This document shows positions 1,081-38,553 of a stretch of 64,000 nucleotides of DNA, piece after piece. The position numbers and the translations under genes are program-made. Below the pieces are notes generated by a model that had not been told where the DNA came from, ran no database searches, and saw nothing but the letters and a program-made list of their open reading frames with translations. The stretch comes from Candidatus Aminicenantales bacterium (GTDB lineage: Bacteria; Acidobacteriota; Aminicenantia; Aminicenantales; UBA4085). The stretch lies in assembly GCA_049697115.1 (NCBI GenBank), contig JBAVVD010000095.1, positions 15,797-79,796 of the forward strand, read 5' to 3'. How positions within the stretch are numbered: the stretch's first letter is position 1; the number at the start of each line of letters is the position of its first letter.

Positions 1081-1964
1081 TGAGAAAACTACAGGAGAAG
1101 GCGAAAAAATCGAGATATACCATCCCAAGCACCATTCTTGTAATTTTGATAATCTTCCTTATTTCTTCAGTTTCACAGGGAGAAATCCTCGGCCTTCAGC
1201 AAGAAAGCACGCTTCCTGTCTCGGATTATAGAATCGGATCCAAGGACCTGCTGGAGATCAAGGTTTTCGAGCTGCCCGAACTCAATCAGACTGTCCGCGT
1301 CTCCGAAGACGGCTCGATCAGCCTTTCCTTGCTCGGCAAGGTGGATGTCGCGGGGCTGACTGCCCAGGAGCTGGAAAAGAAGCTGGCTTCGATCCTGGAT
1401 CAAAAATATACGAAGGCCGGCCATGTCACGGTTTTTATCAAGGAATATCAGAAAGTATCGATTATGGGTGCTATAGGGAGACCCGGCAACTACGAATTGG
1501 TCGGGCCTACGACTCTTCTTCAAGTCATTTTACAAGCCGGAGGATTGACGGCCCAGGCCATGAGCGAGCTCTATGTCTATAGACGGGAGAAAGACGGCCG
1601 GAAAACCAGAATCGCGGTCAACCTGGAAGATTTGATCAGCGGGAACCAAACCCTGAACATCGACCTTCAACCCAATGACGTGGTCAGCATTCCGATCGAT
1701 CAAATGCTCACCGTCTATGTGTATGGGGAGGTCAGGAATCCTGGCGCGATTCAATTCAAGCAGTCGAAAAAGATCACCTTGTTGCAGGCCATCGCCCAGG
1801 CAGGCGGGACGACGGAATGGGCATCGAAATCGCGCGTGATGATCAAACGAAAAGATAAAAAAACCGGGAAAGATATGAAGATTCGGGCGAACCTGAAATC
1901 TATAATCAGCGGAAAAACTTCCGACATCGTCCTCGAAGAAGGCGACATCGTGATTGTCCCTTAA
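1081..1964 (+). CDS. wza: Polysaccharide export protein, OPX/Wza family (Poly_export + SLBB domains), short form without a C-terminal membrane helix
   Basis: PGNYELVGPTTLLQVILQAGG and later QAIAQAGG-type SLBB motifs. An N-terminal signal-like stretch follows the ATG at about 1081 (track ORF begins at 957 TTG). The protein ends right after the second SLBB domain (…EEGDIVIVP). Confidence 0.8.
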
Positions 1965-4296: not shown

Positions 4297-4574
4297 GGGC
4301 TAGAGGCTGTGTTTGATCCCTCCCCCCGGGCTCTTTTTCCGCCTAACGCCCCCTCAAGGCTCGGTAAGCCCGCCCAAGCGCCATGTGGCTGGTCTTCGGG
4401 CTCGAGGCGGGCGCCTGCGCGATCCGGATCCGGGCGAAGGTTTTCGACCTGACGCTCCTGGACGATCGGATCGACCGGGAGAACAAGGATATCTCCTTCG
4501 TCTCATCATATCCGGTTCAACGTAATCGGATGGAAGGAATCCGTTTGATAAATGTGCGTCAACGGACTAACCGA

Positions 4575-6092
4575 TTACAGCCTTGCTTCGGTGCGATGTC
4601 TGACGTAGTTCACTCTATATTTCATTTCTTTTAACAGCGAGTAAATCCCTATTTCTTTCAAACACTTGGCGACTTTATCCTGCAACTTGTATGGAGGATT
4701 GATCGGCCACCTCGTCAATTCTGGCCACATTTTGCGGATCATCTCTCTAAAAATCACGGGTTTATAGTAATTGGTATACCTATCATCAACACCTAAAAAG
4801 ATCTCGTAAAGCTTATGGCTGTCATATGGGTCAATCTCTTCAATCGCGATATCGGATTCCGAATTTCCAGTTGCCCCCCAATTTCCAAGCCAATGTTCCC
4901 AGTACAGAAGTGTTAACACATTTAAACCGTACTCTCTGCCCACGGGCAGCAACTCAGCCACTATACTTTCGCCTTGCGTTATCGCGTAGCGGCCTTCTTT
5001 ATATCCCATTTTATAGGCAATTCTGTAACTGTTCAAGTTCTTCGGCTCTTTCCCAAACCGTATGCGACCTATTTCTCCAATGCCCAGAATGTTGACTTTC
5101 TCTGAATGGTCTTTGAAATAAATGTTGTAAATTGTAGGCAGGATTCGTTCCGATGCAAAAAATGTGTTGCTTAAAAAGATTTGCCGGAATTCATCATCAA
5201 CATCGTTCGGTACATCGTGAATATGAAATGGAACCCTGATACTCTCAAAAATCTTTTTTGGAACTGAAATGTCAGGATGACTAGGACCTAAGCCCTGGCT
5301 ATTAATAAAATAATATATTTTATCCTGGATGTCTCTAGTCGCCGCAAGCAGAGTTCTGCTATCCGTTCCTGCGGTCACGGCCATCATGACCGAGTGCCGA
5401 TTCGCCACTGCTCTGATACTTCCCTGCAGAAACGAACAGCTCTTGGACACTGCCTCTTCTAAATCTAACTGTTTTATGGGTTCATTCGGCCAATAACGCC
5501 GAGCTTCACATCTGTTTATATCGAGATAGTGATTGGGCAGGAGGTGTTTGATACCCTCGTAGTATGTTTCATCACCGATCCATTTACAATAGGGGTTCCA
5601 TTTTGAATTCTTCGAATGCGTTGTGTAGTATTCTAAAAAGTCGGGATCGCTTCTCGGTAGTATTTTAGGTTTTGCGAATTTGATCAGCAGATTGGGCTGG
5701 GATCCGCATATGATCTGGTTTTCTTTTGAACAATAGTATATTTCCCTCAAAGCAAGAGCATCATGCAGGATAACAGTTTTCTTATCATCTTTGTATAACA
5801 GCGCATAACTCCCTGCATATCGCTTGATCCATGAAAATAAACCTTCCATGTTGCATGTGCTGACAAATATGTCTTTTAAAATATCGGTGTTTCCCTTTTC
5901 AGGTTCAGCTGGACTAAAAATACTTCCAATTAGCACAATGTTCTTCCTTAAATCCGTAACTCGATTGACCTCAAGATCAGGATGAGCATGAAGATAGTAT
6001 CGGCCTATCTGTAAACACTTCCAGTCGACAAGCGATGTGATAGGAGCCCTACAAAAAAGAAATTGTCGCCGGAACTGAAGCTTTTCGTACAT
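4575..6092 (-). CDS. Asparagine-synthetase-like PP-loop protein (possible sugar amidotransferase), function uncertain
   Basis: 505 aa with an internal VMMAVTAGTDSR motif resembling the SGGxDS PP-loop. No N-terminal Cys nucleophile. Sits inside the polysaccharide locus in the lower-GC block. Confidence 0.3.
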   Translation of the reverse strand: MYEKLQFRRQFLFCRAPITSLVDWKCLQIGRYYLHAHPDLEVNRVTDLRKNIVLIGSIFSPAEPEKGNTDILKDIFVSTCNMEGLFSWIKRYAGSYALLYKDDKKTVILHDALALREIYYCSKENQIICGSQPNLLIKFAKPKILPRSDPDFLEYYTTHSKNSKWNPYCKWIGDETYYEGIKHLLPNHYLDINRCEARRYWPNEPIKQLDLEEAVSKSCSFLQGSIRAVANRHSVMMAVTAGTDSRTLLAATRDIQDKIYYFINSQGLGPSHPDISVPKKIFESIRVPFHIHDVPNDVDDEFRQIFLSNTFFASERILPTIYNIYFKDHSEKVNILGIGEIGRIRFGKEPKNLNSYRIAYKMGYKEGRYAITQGESIVAELLPVGREYGLNVLTLLYWEHWLGNWGATGNSESDIAIEEIDPYDSHKLYEIFLGVDDRYTNYYKPVIFREMIRKMWPELTRWPINPPYKLQDKVAKCLKEIGIYSLLKEMKYRVNYVRHRTEARL

Positions 6093-36136: not shown

Positions 36137-38005
36137 ATGAGCAGTGATCATCCGAAAATCGACACACGGCCCGGAGGAGACGGCAGGGAGGCGACCCTTG
36201 GGAATAAAATCCGGGTTCTTGTCTGCGAAGGCACCGGATGTGTGTCTTCGAAATCGCCGGACATTCGAGCCGCTCTCGAAAAGGCCGTGCGTCAAATCGG
36301 CTTGAGTGAAAAGATTGAAGTGGGATTTACCGGCTGCCACGGCTTCTGCCAGATAGGCCCTATCGTGGTCGTCGAACCCGAGGGGATTTTCTATTGCAAA
36401 GTGAACCCCAGGGATGCCAAAGATATTGCCGAATCCCACCTCGTCGGCGGGGAACCGGTCAAACGCCTTTTTTACCGCCACCCGGTGACCAAAGAGAGTG
36501 TCCCTTATTATCGGGACATCATGTTCTATAAAAAACAGCAGCGAGTGATCCTGCGCAACTGCGGCAAGATCAACCCGGAAAAAATATCGGATTATGAAGC
36601 TCTGGGCGGTTATCAAGCGCTCCGAAAAGCCGTTCTCAAGATGGGCCCTGAACAGGTTATCGAAGAGGTTCGTCGTTCCGGCCTGCGCGGACGCGGCGGG
36701 GCCGGCTTCCCAACCGGAGTCAAATGGAATTTTTGCCGGAAGCAGCCCGGGGACATCAAGTATGTCATTTGCAATGCCGACGAAGGCGATCCTGGAGCCT
36801 TTATGGATCGCAGTATTCTTGAGGCCGATCCCCATACGGTAATTGAAGGGCTTATTATCCTTGGCTTTGCCATCAACGCCCGCCGGGGTTTTTTCTACTG
36901 CCGCGCGGAATACCCTTTGGCCGTCAAAAGGGTAGGCATCGCCCTTGAGCAGGCGCGCCATAAAGGCTTTCTGGGGAAAAACATCTTCGGATCGGGCTTC
37001 GATTTCGATGTCGAAATATTTGAAGGAGCCGGGGCGTTCGTCTGCGGAGAAGAAACCGCTCTGATCCGTTCCATCGAGGGTTCAAGGGGAATGCCGCGCA
37101 GCCGCCCGCCCTTTCCGGCCGAAAAAGGACTCTGGGGGAGGCCCACTGTCATCAACAACGTCAAGACTCTGGCTTCCGTCCCCGTCATTATCAATCAGGG
37201 AGCCGACTGGTTTGCATCCATCGGGACGGAAACCAGTAAAGGAACGGCCGTCTTTGCGCTGACGGGAAAGATCGCCAATTCCGGACTCGTCGAAGTGCCA
37301 ATGGGGGCTCCCCTGTCACACATCATTTACGATATCGGAGGAGGAATTCCTAATAAGAAAACCTTCAAAGCCGTCCAGACCGGCGGGCCGTCGGGAGGAT
37401 GTCTGCCGGCCACACAGCTCGAACTTCCGATTGATTTCGATTCCTTGCAGAAAGCGGGTTCGATGATGGGCTCCGGAGGTCTGGTTGTGATGGATGATGA
37501 TACGTGCATCGTGGATGTGGCGCGGTTCTTCCTCTCCTTCATCCAGAGCGAATCATGCGGCAAATGCGTCCCCTGCCGGATTGGCACTCGTCTTATGGTG
37601 GACATTTTGGAGAAAATCATGGCCGGAAAGGGAACGGAACAGGACCTGGTGCGACTTGAAAAGCTGGCTAACCTGGTGAAGTTCGGCTCACTCTGCGGCC
37701 TCGGACAGACCGCTCCCAATCCCGTCCTCACAGCGCTCCGATACTTCCGGTCCGAATTTATCGCCCATATCGTCGACAAACGATGCCCGGCGGCCGTCTG
37801 CCGCGAACTCGTCACGTTTCGCGTGATTCCAGAACGGTGCACGGGCTGTCAGTTGTGCGTTAAGGTCTGTCCGACGAAAGCCATTTCCGGACCCCGATCT
37901 CAACCGCATAATCTCGACCAGACCAAATGCATCAAATGCCGCGCGTGTTATGAAATTTGTCGGTTCGATGCCATCGCCGGCGAGGCCATCGTCATCGTAT
38001 CTTAG
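36137..38005 (+). CDS. NuoF/HndC-like NAD(P)H-binding flavoprotein subunit with N-terminal 2Fe-2S domain and C-terminal 2x[4Fe-4S]
   Basis: GLRGRGGAGFPTGVKW (FMN/NADH site), the 4Fe-4S N3-type CxxCxxC…C region, and C-terminal CTGCQLCVKVCP / CIKCRACYEICRF ferredoxin motifs. Confidence 0.85.
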   Translation: MSSDHPKIDTRPGGDGREATLGNKIRVLVCEGTGCVSSKSPDIRAALEKAVRQIGLSEKIEVGFTGCHGFCQIGPIVVVEPEGIFYCKVNPRDAKDIAESHLVGGEPVKRLFYRHPVTKESVPYYRDIMFYKKQQRVILRNCGKINPEKISDYEALGGYQALRKAVLKMGPEQVIEEVRRSGLRGRGGAGFPTGVKWNFCRKQPGDIKYVICNADEGDPGAFMDRSILEADPHTVIEGLIILGFAINARRGFFYCRAEYPLAVKRVGIALEQARHKGFLGKNIFGSGFDFDVEIFEGAGAFVCGEETALIRSIEGSRGMPRSRPPFPAEKGLWGRPTVINNVKTLASVPVIINQGADWFASIGTETSKGTAVFALTGKIANSGLVEVPMGAPLSHIIYDIGGGIPNKKTFKAVQTGGPSGGCLPATQLELPIDFDSLQKAGSMMGSGGLVVMDDDTCIVDVARFFLSFIQSESCGKCVPCRIGTRLMVDILEKIMAGKGTEQDLVRLEKLANLVKFGSLCGLGQTAPNPVLTALRYFRSEFIAHIVDKRCPAAVCRELVTFRVIPERCTGCQLCVKVCPTKAISGPRSQPHNLDQTKCIKCRACYEICRFDAIAGEAIVIVS

Positions 38006-38035
38006 GACAGGCAACAAAGAATCTTACTTTATTTA

Positions 38036-38193
38036 TTGAGTGAGAAAAGAGCTTCAGTCGAAGAAATCAGACAGAAGCTCAAATTGGTGAGAAGAACAGT
38101 TCGGCGCGATCTATCAAGATTATGTGATTTAGGCCTATCAAAAGAGATAGTTAAGAGCAAAACAGATCCGACAAAATCTTACGAGTTAGTGTG
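38036..38193 (+). CDS. Possible mini winged-HTH protein (DeoR-like helix-turn-helix only, about 52 aa, TTG start)
   Basis: Translation LSEKRASVEEIRQKLKLVRRTVRRDLSRLCDLGLSKEIVKSK… resembles the DeoR N-terminal HTH (…TVRRDL…L…GL). Below the track length cutoff; no ATG. Confidence 0.2.
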
Positions 38194-38245
38194 ACATTTT
38201 ATTGTGACAACACTGCGACATATATTGTGACAGGTTACTGTGACA
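38190..38245. repeat. Array of five direct heptamer repeats TGTGACA (one TGCGACA) spaced 11-13 bp
   Basis: Copies at about 38190, 38203, 38214, 38226 and 38239. Starts at the stop codon of the mini-HTH ORF, about 125 bp from the 3' end of tRNA-Asn. Confidence 0.6.
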
Positions 38246-38370
38246 CAATATGAACCAGGGAGTTCCTGCGGGACGGTTGTTGGATGGGGAGCGAGTTCTC
38301 CGAGCGGAAAAGGGCGAGGCAGACGAGCGAACATGCGCCTCTTTTATGTGTTTGAAAAAATTATTCAGAA

Positions 38371-38446
38371 TGGCTCCTCGGGCAGGACTCGAACCTGCAA
38401 CCTATTGGTTAACAGCCAACCGCTCTGCCAATTGAGCTACCGAGGA
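38371..38446 (-). tRNA. tRNA-Asn (anticodon GTT), CCA encoded
   Basis: Reverse complement folds as a canonical cloverleaf: acceptor TCCTCGG/CCGAGGA, D-arm GCTC-AATTGGCA-GAGC, anticodon stem GTTGG/CCAAT with loop CTGTTAA, T-arm GCAGG-TTCGAGT-CCTGC, discriminator G, then CCA. Very close to E. coli tRNA-Asn. Confidence 0.85.
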
Positions 38447-38553
38447 GCAAATCGGTCTCAATTTAGCATGATTCAAAAAAAATATCAATAGAACCGCATT
38501 GACCGGCGGTTCTCCGGCTCTCGGGTAAAAAAAGAAAAAATGTCTTTTAAGAA

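Follow-up and report, generated by a model that had tools for sequence, protein, structure and literature searches.

A winged-helix fragment of a SoFic-type Fic gene and its putative cognate repeat array beside tRNA-Asn in an Aminicenantales genome

Introduction

SoFic, a class II Fic AMPylase whose C-terminus forms a winged helix-turn-helix (wHTH), is a known single-gene anti-phage defence system. The present analysis concerns a remnant of a SoFic-type gene in a 64-kb stretch of DNA from Candidatus Aminicenantales bacterium (contig JBAVVD010000095.1; this whole stretch is referred to as the window), in which a short wHTH-coding frame, a tandem array of TGTGACA repeats and a tRNA-Asn gene lie one after another next to a NuoF-like gene. 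Several related wHTH-containing enzymes have been characterized with respect to DNA binding. CccR represses its own promoter, to which it binds at two 10-bp boxes (PMC9755527), SoFic as a dimer binds the 100 bp located 5' of its own gene and AMPylates EF-Tu (bioRxiv 10.64898/2026.07.09.737422), and in CbFic2 the binding of DNA leads to dimerisation and to a switch between AMPylation and deAMPylation (PMC10628234). For the E. coli SoFic, toxicity was reported to be neutralised by an ill-defined downstream region of 47 codons ("AS1"), the protein product of which was never purified (PMC12249575).

That wHTH-Fic proteins bind DNA at their own locus is already known, and a gene relic such as the one in the window is in itself ordinary. 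On the other hand, the literature searched contains no description of a tandem array in the SoFic clade that starts in the stop codon, of an array that changes in step with the recognition helix, or of a joint exchange of a wHTH domain and its array. Our reading, to which we assign a probability of roughly 70%, is that positions 38006-38245 of the window comprise an orphan wHTH module together with its cognate repeat array, both derived from a SoFic-type defence gene.

Results

An orphan wHTH fragment of a SoFic-type Fic gene

An earlier note, made from the letters of the window alone, had described a 52-codon DeoR-like HTH-only open reading frame (ORF) and considered that the repeats might be the operator of this small HTH protein. 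In fact, the HTH frame is open over 38006-38191, starting from the base that follows the TAG stop of the NuoF-like gene, and the 52-codon ORF (TTG start at 38036) is only a part of it. Pfam HTH_11 and HTH_DeoR both align with the complete 62-residue frame (DRQQRILLYLL...KSYELV) from profile position 1, with scores over their cut-offs (30.5 and 30.1 bits, respectively), whereas the 52-residue ORF enters both profiles at position 13 and scores below both cut-offs; its TTG, the first start codon available, cuts off helix 1 of the wHTH domain. The whole domain is therefore without a start codon, and the idea of an independent regulator is not supported.

An exhaustive HMMER search of 1.8 billion representative proteins returned 16 matches at E<=1e-10, with identities of 51-72%. 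Where the matched protein has a normal end, the alignment in nearly every case extends to the C-terminus or stops at most one residue short of it, and several of the matches bear the N-terminal Fic_N signature HHSTHIEGT. The contigs encoding the three closest proteins contain Fic genes, either intact or broken, directly 5' of the HTH part; in these first three homologous contigs the same repeats run from the stop codon on, with no tRNA close by. By tblastn, the window fragment corresponds to residues 287-348 of a 348-residue full-length reference (65% identity), and it shares 62-77% identity with the C-termini of the family proteins. The same type of search with the full-length reference revealed no other Fic homology within the 64-kb window. 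The frame at 38006-38194 is thus a gene fragment carrying one complete wHTH module.

Full-length members of the family are very uniform in length (348 residues) and combine Fic_N, the Fic motif HPFLDGNGRTAR and the wHTH. A full-length homologue matched the PADLOC SoFic model with an E-value of 1.7e-68, covering residues 11-338 of the reference. Among the hallmarks of SoFic, the catalytic motif HxFx(D/E)GNGRxxR is present in the full-length homologues (as HPFLDGNGRTAR) and absent from the window; the inhibitory helix (S/T)xxxE(G/N) appears in the homologues as STHIEG, and the corresponding region is missing from the window; the C-terminal winged helix is found in the window copy. This copy departs from two nearly invariant residues (Q33R in the recognition helix, and A49V). 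The boxes of its array (see below) show 1.0 mismatch per unit, compared to 0.62 in intact loci, and only one of the five is a perfect 10-mer. Because the catalytic part is lost, the whole domain lacks a start codon and additional substitutions are seen in both the wHTH and the boxes, the window copy is most likely a non-functional relic.

The repeat array in the window and at homologous loci

The heptamer TGTGACA occurs exactly at 38190, 38203, 38226 and 38239 of the plus strand, and a variant, TGCGACA, at 38214, with start-to-start spacing of 13, 11, 12 and 13 bp. The five-copy array announced in the earlier note is hence real, with four exact copies and one variant. The whole window contains, on both strands, 11 exact copies versus 3.7 expected, a number reached in 0 of 100 shuffles; with 4 of the 11 falling within 56 bp on one strand, the clustering is not due to chance. 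As for the claim that the array begins at the stop of the HTH ORF, the stop codon (TGA, 38192-38194) does lie inside the first heptamer, although the ORF it terminates is the 62-residue frame of which the 52 codons are a part. No promoter or terminator signal above shuffle expectation was detected in the array.

A scan of metagenomes with the wHTH alignment gave 76 loci, nearly all of them with tandem TACTGTGACA units; the counts in this paragraph refer to 65 non-redundant homologous loci, with array units counted at no more than one mismatch per unit. At least two tandem units of the consensus TACTGTGACA are present in 63 of these 65 loci (2-6 units), the first unit lying within the last two codons of the gene. 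Arrays of four (28 loci) and three units (24 loci) are followed in frequency by those of five (7) and two (3), with single cases of six units, one unit and none. Units are spaced by 11 bp in 51 cases, by 12 bp in 58 and by 13 bp in 47. Each of the ten core positions of the box is at least 88% conserved; the spacers between the boxes (1-3 nt) are A/T-rich and not conserved. The orientation of the boxes is always that of the gene, they are not enriched within it, and none was found 5' of it, even when inverted copies were included under a transposon-end model.

Intact genes of the family end in Y-E-L-L-stop, so that GAA TTA CTG TGA CA encodes E-L-L-stop and simultaneously forms the first box. 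Of the 29 intact genes, 25 use CTG for the final Leu, a codon that accounts for only 15% of Leu codons in the remainder of these genes; 26 have TTA or CTA as the penultimate codon, and TGA serves as the stop in all 29. In the divergent locus L160 the protein ends differently and the array, eight CT(G/A)TGAC(A) units with the core retained, is found ~25 nt past the stop. Across 984 kb of unrelated loci we counted 17 such arrays, two of them after a stop codon, versus 83 arrays, 54 of them after the stop of a long ORF, in 310 kb of family loci. Selection acts on the array at the nucleotide level.

The genes adjacent to family members, as read from their protein sequences rather than by hidden Markov model (HMM) searches, include HsdM, HsdS, HsdR, AlbA_2, IS66, IS200, DUF1016 and PolA. 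Since these neighbours are diverse and the DNA 5' of the family genes is unconserved between loci, the gene and its array form a self-contained unit that resides in defence islands and type I restriction-modification (R-M) operons. There is no conserved small ORF 3' of the array, and the downstream DNA is unrelated between contexts.

Several additional features of these loci were recorded. In L125 (100-232 and 1320-1440), as well as in L132 and L154, the SoFic cassette is located between copies of the C-terminal tail of an R-M methylase (..KELERQIDQMVYKLYGLTEEEI..), and looks as if it had been inserted into, or recombined through, this conserved tail. A motif, (C)GA-N2-4-ATATACATTAT(G/A)T, recurs ~60-70 nt past several arrays (L092, at ~2005-2030, L103, L091 and L093), and in L140 (3995-4020) it stands exactly at the left junction of an orphan module. 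Possibly this motif marks where a different small mobile element ends. In four cases (L113, L116, L129 and protein P0125), independent internal deletions that keep the frame fuse residues 1 to 28-31 directly to the wHTH, so that the catalytic core is lost while the native start and the DNA-binding end are kept. An apparent excess of 5'-truncated copies was considered as a sign of LINE-like or rolling-circle mobility, and this interpretation was rejected: the excess is mainly an ascertainment bias, because the search query was the C-terminus, although the clustering of left ends at the module boundary survives. Finally, a distant Fic-wHTH gene of a Stanieria plasmid (AP017376; L170, 560-685) has four TTTAATTGG direct repeats just 5' of its start and none after its stop, which is a conventional promoter-side arrangement.

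Recognition helix and array motif change together

The comparison was extended to other wHTH-ended genes in the fetched loci and to Fic relatives from viral contigs, which carry other arrays in the corresponding position, after the stop (Table 1). Helices of the ..LQR(D/E)L type pair with (T/C)(G/A)(T/C)GACA, and those of the ..T-x-T-RDL type with (G/A)GGACA. More distant Fic proteins with other types of HTH had no such array.

Table 1. Recognition helices and the motifs of the arrays that accompany them
Recognition helix	Array motif	Source
VRRTVQRDL	TACTGTGACA	main family
NRRSLQRDL	CTGTGACA / CTACGACA	L191
NRRSLQRDL	TTTACGACA	L193
NKRTLQREL	CTTATGACA, overlapping the stop	L198
IKRTATRDL	AAGGGACA (AGGGACA)	L133, second Fic
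IRRTATRDL	TAGGACA, 5 units	L194
NRRTLTRDL	TGGGACA, 5 units	L110, AlbA_2/HATPase_c_4-type protein (read from sequence)
ITRQAALKEL	TAGTTGTCATTT, 4 units	L089
ISRQAAHKEM	GAGTTGACGCAA, 3 units	L089 and L133 (fragment)
ISDTAARTET	ATTAACTTGGGG, 4 units	L195

The strongest single result is the joint swap seen between L089 and L133. Over residues 1-272 the two Fic proteins share ~99% identity, which drops to only ~35% in the wHTH. In the DNA, an identity of 95% ends at codon 285 and returns between units 2 and 3 of the TACTGTGACA array, and between these two breakpoints L133 holds another wHTH followed by an array of the GGGACA type. The wHTH and the array have therefore been exchanged together as a single block, as would be expected if both must match. 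Taken with the way the motif tracks the helix, this result points to the array as the putative cognate operator of the wHTH encoded next to it, and in substance it agrees with the proposal of the earlier note that the repeats would be a protein-binding array belonging to the neighbouring HTH.

Both loci have a further peculiarity: the TACTGTGACA array is directly followed by a second wHTH 3' fragment (..ISRQAAHKEMKKLIGIDIIEAKGSGKAIYYVIK) with its own three-unit GAGTTGACGCAA array (L089, 1447-1670; L133, 4156-4361 and 7058-7255), and in L133 this 198-bp wHTH-fragment block occurs twice.

The pairing is not confined to Fic. In L110 (1201-2765) a gene located just 5' of the SoFic gene encodes a 495-residue protein with a C-terminal wHTH, assigned to the AlbA_2/HATPase_c_4 type by reading of its sequence and not by HMM; from its stop codon on, it carries five GGGACA units and one inverted copy. 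This wHTH-array gene extends the architecture beyond Fic enzymes.

The genomic setting of the relic

The features of the interval are listed in Table 2. From the NuoF stop to the 3' end of the tRNA-Asn(GTT) gene it measures 365 bp. The NuoF-like gene closes a conserved operon of the hydrogenase/NuoEF type, and the tRNA gene, which is of the usual housekeeping kind, marks the border of a conserved block (tRNA-Asn, a gene for a 178-residue protein, PEPCK and the DnaK operon). What the earlier note had said of this layout holds: the tRNA gene on the minus strand is found by both ARAGORN and Rfam, the gap of about 125 bp to the array is exactly of this length, and two plus-strand ORFs do run over the tRNA and are taken as spurious because both overlap it. 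In the Rfam search, at gathering as well as permissive thresholds, the tRNA was the sole match. No Rfam family matches the spacer between the array and the tRNA, which also lacks similarity to any of the 76 related loci and to the DNA beside the tRNA in relatives.

Table 2. Features around the orphan module (positions in the window)
Feature	Position	Strand	Remarks
NuoF-like subunit gene	36137-38005	plus	Pfam Complex1_51K, NADH_4Fe-4S; TAG stop abuts the orphan module
Orphan C-terminal wHTH module of a SoFic-type class II Fic gene	38006-38194	plus	62 codons and TGA; translation, Pfam
Tandem array of five 10-bp boxes	38187-38245	plus	family consensus TACTGTGACA
Box 1, TAGTGTGACA	38187 (start)	plus	includes the stop codon
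Box 2, TATTGTGACA	38200 (start)	plus	
Box 3, CACTGCGACA	38211 (start)	plus	
Box 4, TATTGTGACA	38223 (start)	plus	
Box 5, TACTGTGACA	38236 (start)	plus	
tRNA-overlapping ORF	38240-38491	plus	ORF list
tRNA-overlapping ORF	38250-38435	plus	ORF list
125-bp spacer, array to tRNA 3' end	38246-38370	none	G+C-richer; unique to the source genome
tRNA-Asn(GTT)	38371-38446	minus	ARAGORN; Rfam RF00005, 71.8 bits (cut-off 29)

For comparison we used 14 relatives anchored on NuoF (L002-L006, L017, L029, L035 and L163-L168) and four anchored on PEPCK (L187-L190). The segment 38006-38245 is in none of them. The condition that the earlier note had named as refuting its reading, conservation of the segment in all relatives with no enrichment of the heptamer elsewhere, is contradicted on both counts: the segment is unconserved among relatives, and the repeat array recurs at 63 of 65 homologous loci elsewhere. 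All relatives with 80-86% NuoF identity keep the upstream operon; past the NuoF stop the DNA differs from one to the next and holds different genes, with no tRNA and no Fic. On the other side, L187 (82% PEPCK identity) has tRNA-Asn beside a 171-residue orthologue (53% identity) of the 178-residue protein and keeps the PEPCK-DnaK block, with a Ser/Thr protein kinase gene on the 3' side of the tRNA. All that these flank comparisons show is a loss of synteny, at the NuoF stop on one side and at the tRNA-Asn 3' end on the other; the orphan module therefore lies precisely where the NuoF operon meets the tRNA-Asn/PEPCK block. The earlier suggestion of a relic of an integrated element survives in part: the DNA is of a horizontally moving kind and is absent from the compared relatives of both sides, but neither an integrase nor an att repeat was found (see Discussion).

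Two side observations belong to the flanking genes. The wHTH frame is in frame with NuoF, separated from it by TAG alone (38003-38008), so that read-through would yield a NuoF-wHTH fusion; the shared frame is probably a coincidence with a one-in-three chance, and the C-terminus of NuoF is unchanged across relatives. In L188, a contig from a related member of the Aminicenantes (1250-1513, minus strand), a group I intron of 264 nt (Rfam RF00028, 92 bits, E 2e-24) splits the anticodon loop of the orthologous tRNA-Asn(GTT) gene; the tRNA-Asn of the sister contig L187 (1462-1537) is uninterrupted.

Discussion

A possible role of the array

Since the published wHTH-Fic enzymes bind specific DNA, and since the box described here is also 10 bp long, we infer that each box would be bound by one wHTH of the protein encoded just 5' of it, the proteins being arranged head to tail along the DNA, as are the winged helices of the OmpR/PhoB type and of plasmid Rep proteins on direct repeats. 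Two outcomes would fit the unusual position of the array. The enzyme could be loaded or tethered on its own locus, its activity being controlled by DNA-dependent oligomerisation. Alternatively, the bound protein might act as a roadblock over the stop codon, repressing the gene from its 3' end and limiting the amount of complete mRNA.

A number of points weigh against such an assignment. The position of an operator at the 3' end is unusual, as CccR and SoFic bind 5' of their own genes, and the distant plasmid-borne Fic-wHTH genes have no array past the stop. With a spacing of 11-13 bp the boxes do not stay on the same side of the helix, and this speaks against rigid cooperative stacking. Arrays beside decayed genes are about as intact as those beside intact ones, and the role of the array could accordingly be independent of the Fic enzyme. 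The pairing of motif and helix, which extends over about nine module types, is a correlation rather than a proof. Furthermore, of 14 matches in viral contigs, 8 turned out to be Thr-Pro-Thr-Val coding repeats, and the remaining 6 contigs, representing 4 distinct non-coding contexts, contain box clusters without Fic by terminase or primase genes, so the same box may be read by other proteins.

These non-coding clusters of TACTGTGACA/TGTGACA occur in both orientations (L173/L177/L185, ~4381-4600; L181, ~4350-4470; L178, 2410; L186, 6945); the cluster of L173 is at terminase genes, and that of L181 adjoins a primase-helicase gene. We treat them as an unrelated use of a similar box.

Alternative explanations

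A weaker alternative to DNA binding, and in our view an unlikely one, is that the array acts as RNA in the 3' untranslated region of the Fic mRNA, where its UACUGUGACA units would bind the Fic protein or another factor and thereby control the toxin or neutralise it, in loose analogy to type III toxin-antitoxin systems with their repeat-RNA antitoxins. As the array overlaps the stop codon, it is necessarily co-transcribed with the gene; its orientation is always that of the gene, and the variable 1-3 nt spacers would matter less on single-stranded RNA. The neutralisation of E. coli SoFic by AS1, the product of which could not be purified, also leaves room for a nucleic-acid effect (PMC12249575). 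Nevertheless, the partner domain is a classical DNA-binding winged helix whose relatives bind double-stranded DNA (PMC9755527; PMC10628234; bioRxiv 10.64898/2026.07.09.737422), and canonical arrays showed no conserved RNA structure (z-scores of -0.45 and +0.28). The units of 11-13 nt are far below those of the known type III antitoxins, Fic is not an RNase, and the array has no Rfam match.

It is also improbable that the array is primarily a recombination site, that is a junction for the exchange of wHTH modules or cassettes, with the orphans being silent donors or scars. Copies 95-99% identical do lose homology exactly past the last heptamer, but this is expected anyway if the gene and the array form a conserved unit placed in unrelated contexts. 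The GGGACA array of L133 is joined directly to the last two units of the TACTGTGACA array, L089 and L133 hold stacked relics in which a 3' fragment of a wHTH is accompanied by its array, and arrays remain intact in orphans. The left ends of orphans are concentrated as well: 11 of the 19 observable ones fall within residues 279-299 (~19-fold enrichment). These left junctions nevertheless scatter over ~40 nt and are thus not site-specific, no recombinase travels with the modules, the neighbours of which are diverse, and the 64-kb window holds no Fic gene that could make use of a donor cassette.

The tRNA-centred explanation of the earlier note, in which an element would have integrated at the tRNA-Asn 3' end and the repeats would be its arm-type sites or iterons, is largely refuted and retains very little probability. 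The segment does lie 125 bp from the tRNA 3' end, exactly at the synteny break, and two further family members, L113 (tRNA-Met) and L117 (tRNA-Leu), are found just 3' of tRNA genes, in line with defence genes on tRNA-targeted islands. In both of these, however, the tRNA faces the 5' end of the gene, and at no homologous locus other than the window does a tRNA face the array, which moves with the wHTH and not with an att site. No integrase, recombinase, Rep or transposase domain was detected in the 13 large ORFs scanned (28.5-49 kb), and the search of the 64 kb for a duplicate of the tRNA 3' end gave at best 10 exact bases, plus one 13-base match with a mismatch. The adjacency of the three family members to tRNA genes fits the location of defence genes in variable, often tRNA-adjacent regions, and the array is not related to att; tRNA-Asn is its neighbour, not its partner.

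Finally, there is next to no chance that the array is a functionless by-product of replication slippage copying the coding-constrained last 12 nt: unit numbers do differ between close relatives in a way typical of slippage (3 in L092 versus 4 in L093; 4 in L115 versus 6 in L123), but in the terminal codons even the synonymous sites are held to the sequence of the box, the array persists off the stop in L160, the arrays of other module types are unrelated to the terminal codons (L195, L089), and its retention by 63 of 65 loci whose proteins are 54-100% identical goes far beyond neutral persistence.

Implications for the family

Beyond the reading of 38006-38245 as an orphan wHTH module with its cognate array, we tentatively consider a wider possibility, which we hold to be rather doubtful as a whole. 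A clade of defence-island effectors, including SoFic-type Fic AMPylases and at least one AlbA_2/HATPase_c_4 protein, might carry a self-addressing module composed of a C-terminal wHTH and cognate boxes that run from its own stop codon on, with the array as the cis-acting DNA partner of the toxin and with modules swapped to stay orthogonal. The array might then hold the enzyme at its coding locus or promote its oligomerisation there, or it might keep transcription from passing the stop codon; orthogonal modules would be of use when several such genes share an island, and orphans could represent debris of turnover or silent donors.

The family is of more interest than the window locus, a decaying gene fragment beside a tRNA. 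A module-matched array offers a concrete cis element for the question of how SoFic-type toxins stay silent and are then released in infection, and the naturally swapped pairs (TGTGACA-type versus GGGACA-type) are ready-made specificity controls. For annotation, a short DeoR-like ORF followed by direct repeats of 11-13 bp, when met in a variable region, probably represents the remaining end of a defence gene that has been lost, and not a regulator.

Comparison with known systems

The locus resembles the relics of islands found at the side of tRNA genes in that a fragment of a horizontally moving defence gene sits at a variable junction by a tRNA 3' end, but it lacks an integrase, an att duplication and other island genes. 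Type III toxin-antitoxin systems, in turn, have structured repeats of ~34-40 nt placed 5' of an endoribonuclease gene, whereas the units described here are 11-13 nt long and placed 3' of a Fic gene.

A closer analogy is provided by OmpR/PhoB-type regulators with their pho boxes and by Rep-iteron systems, in which winged helices likewise recognize short direct repeats spaced by about one helical turn, with a 7-10 bp core and an A/T-rich spacer. In both, each protein is specific for its own repeat, and Rep-iteron pairs in addition diversify together, avoiding cross-talk. The term "iteron-like" used in the earlier note holds only as an analogy, there being no replicon: iterons of plasmids are repeats of 17-22 bp by a rep gene at an origin, whereas here the repeats are of 11-13 bp and the neighbours are chromosomal housekeeping genes. 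Unlike in both OmpR/PhoB and Rep-iteron systems, there is no receiver domain, promoter context, replication origin or rep gene, and the array is located at the 3' end of the gene for the putative binding protein itself.

The nearest relatives remain SoFic, CccR and CbFic2, with which the family shares the match to the PADLOC SoFic model, the location in defence islands and type I R-M operons, and the wHTH-Fic architecture for which binding of DNA near the own gene has been published. Still, the two boxes of CccR are inverted and located 26 bp apart in the promoter, whereas here they are direct repeats; the sites of SoFic and CccR are upstream, in the promoter, whereas here three to five direct repeats extend downstream from the last codons. 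In contrast to all three systems, the array is exchanged together with the wHTH as one module, and in the window this module is found without its enzyme.

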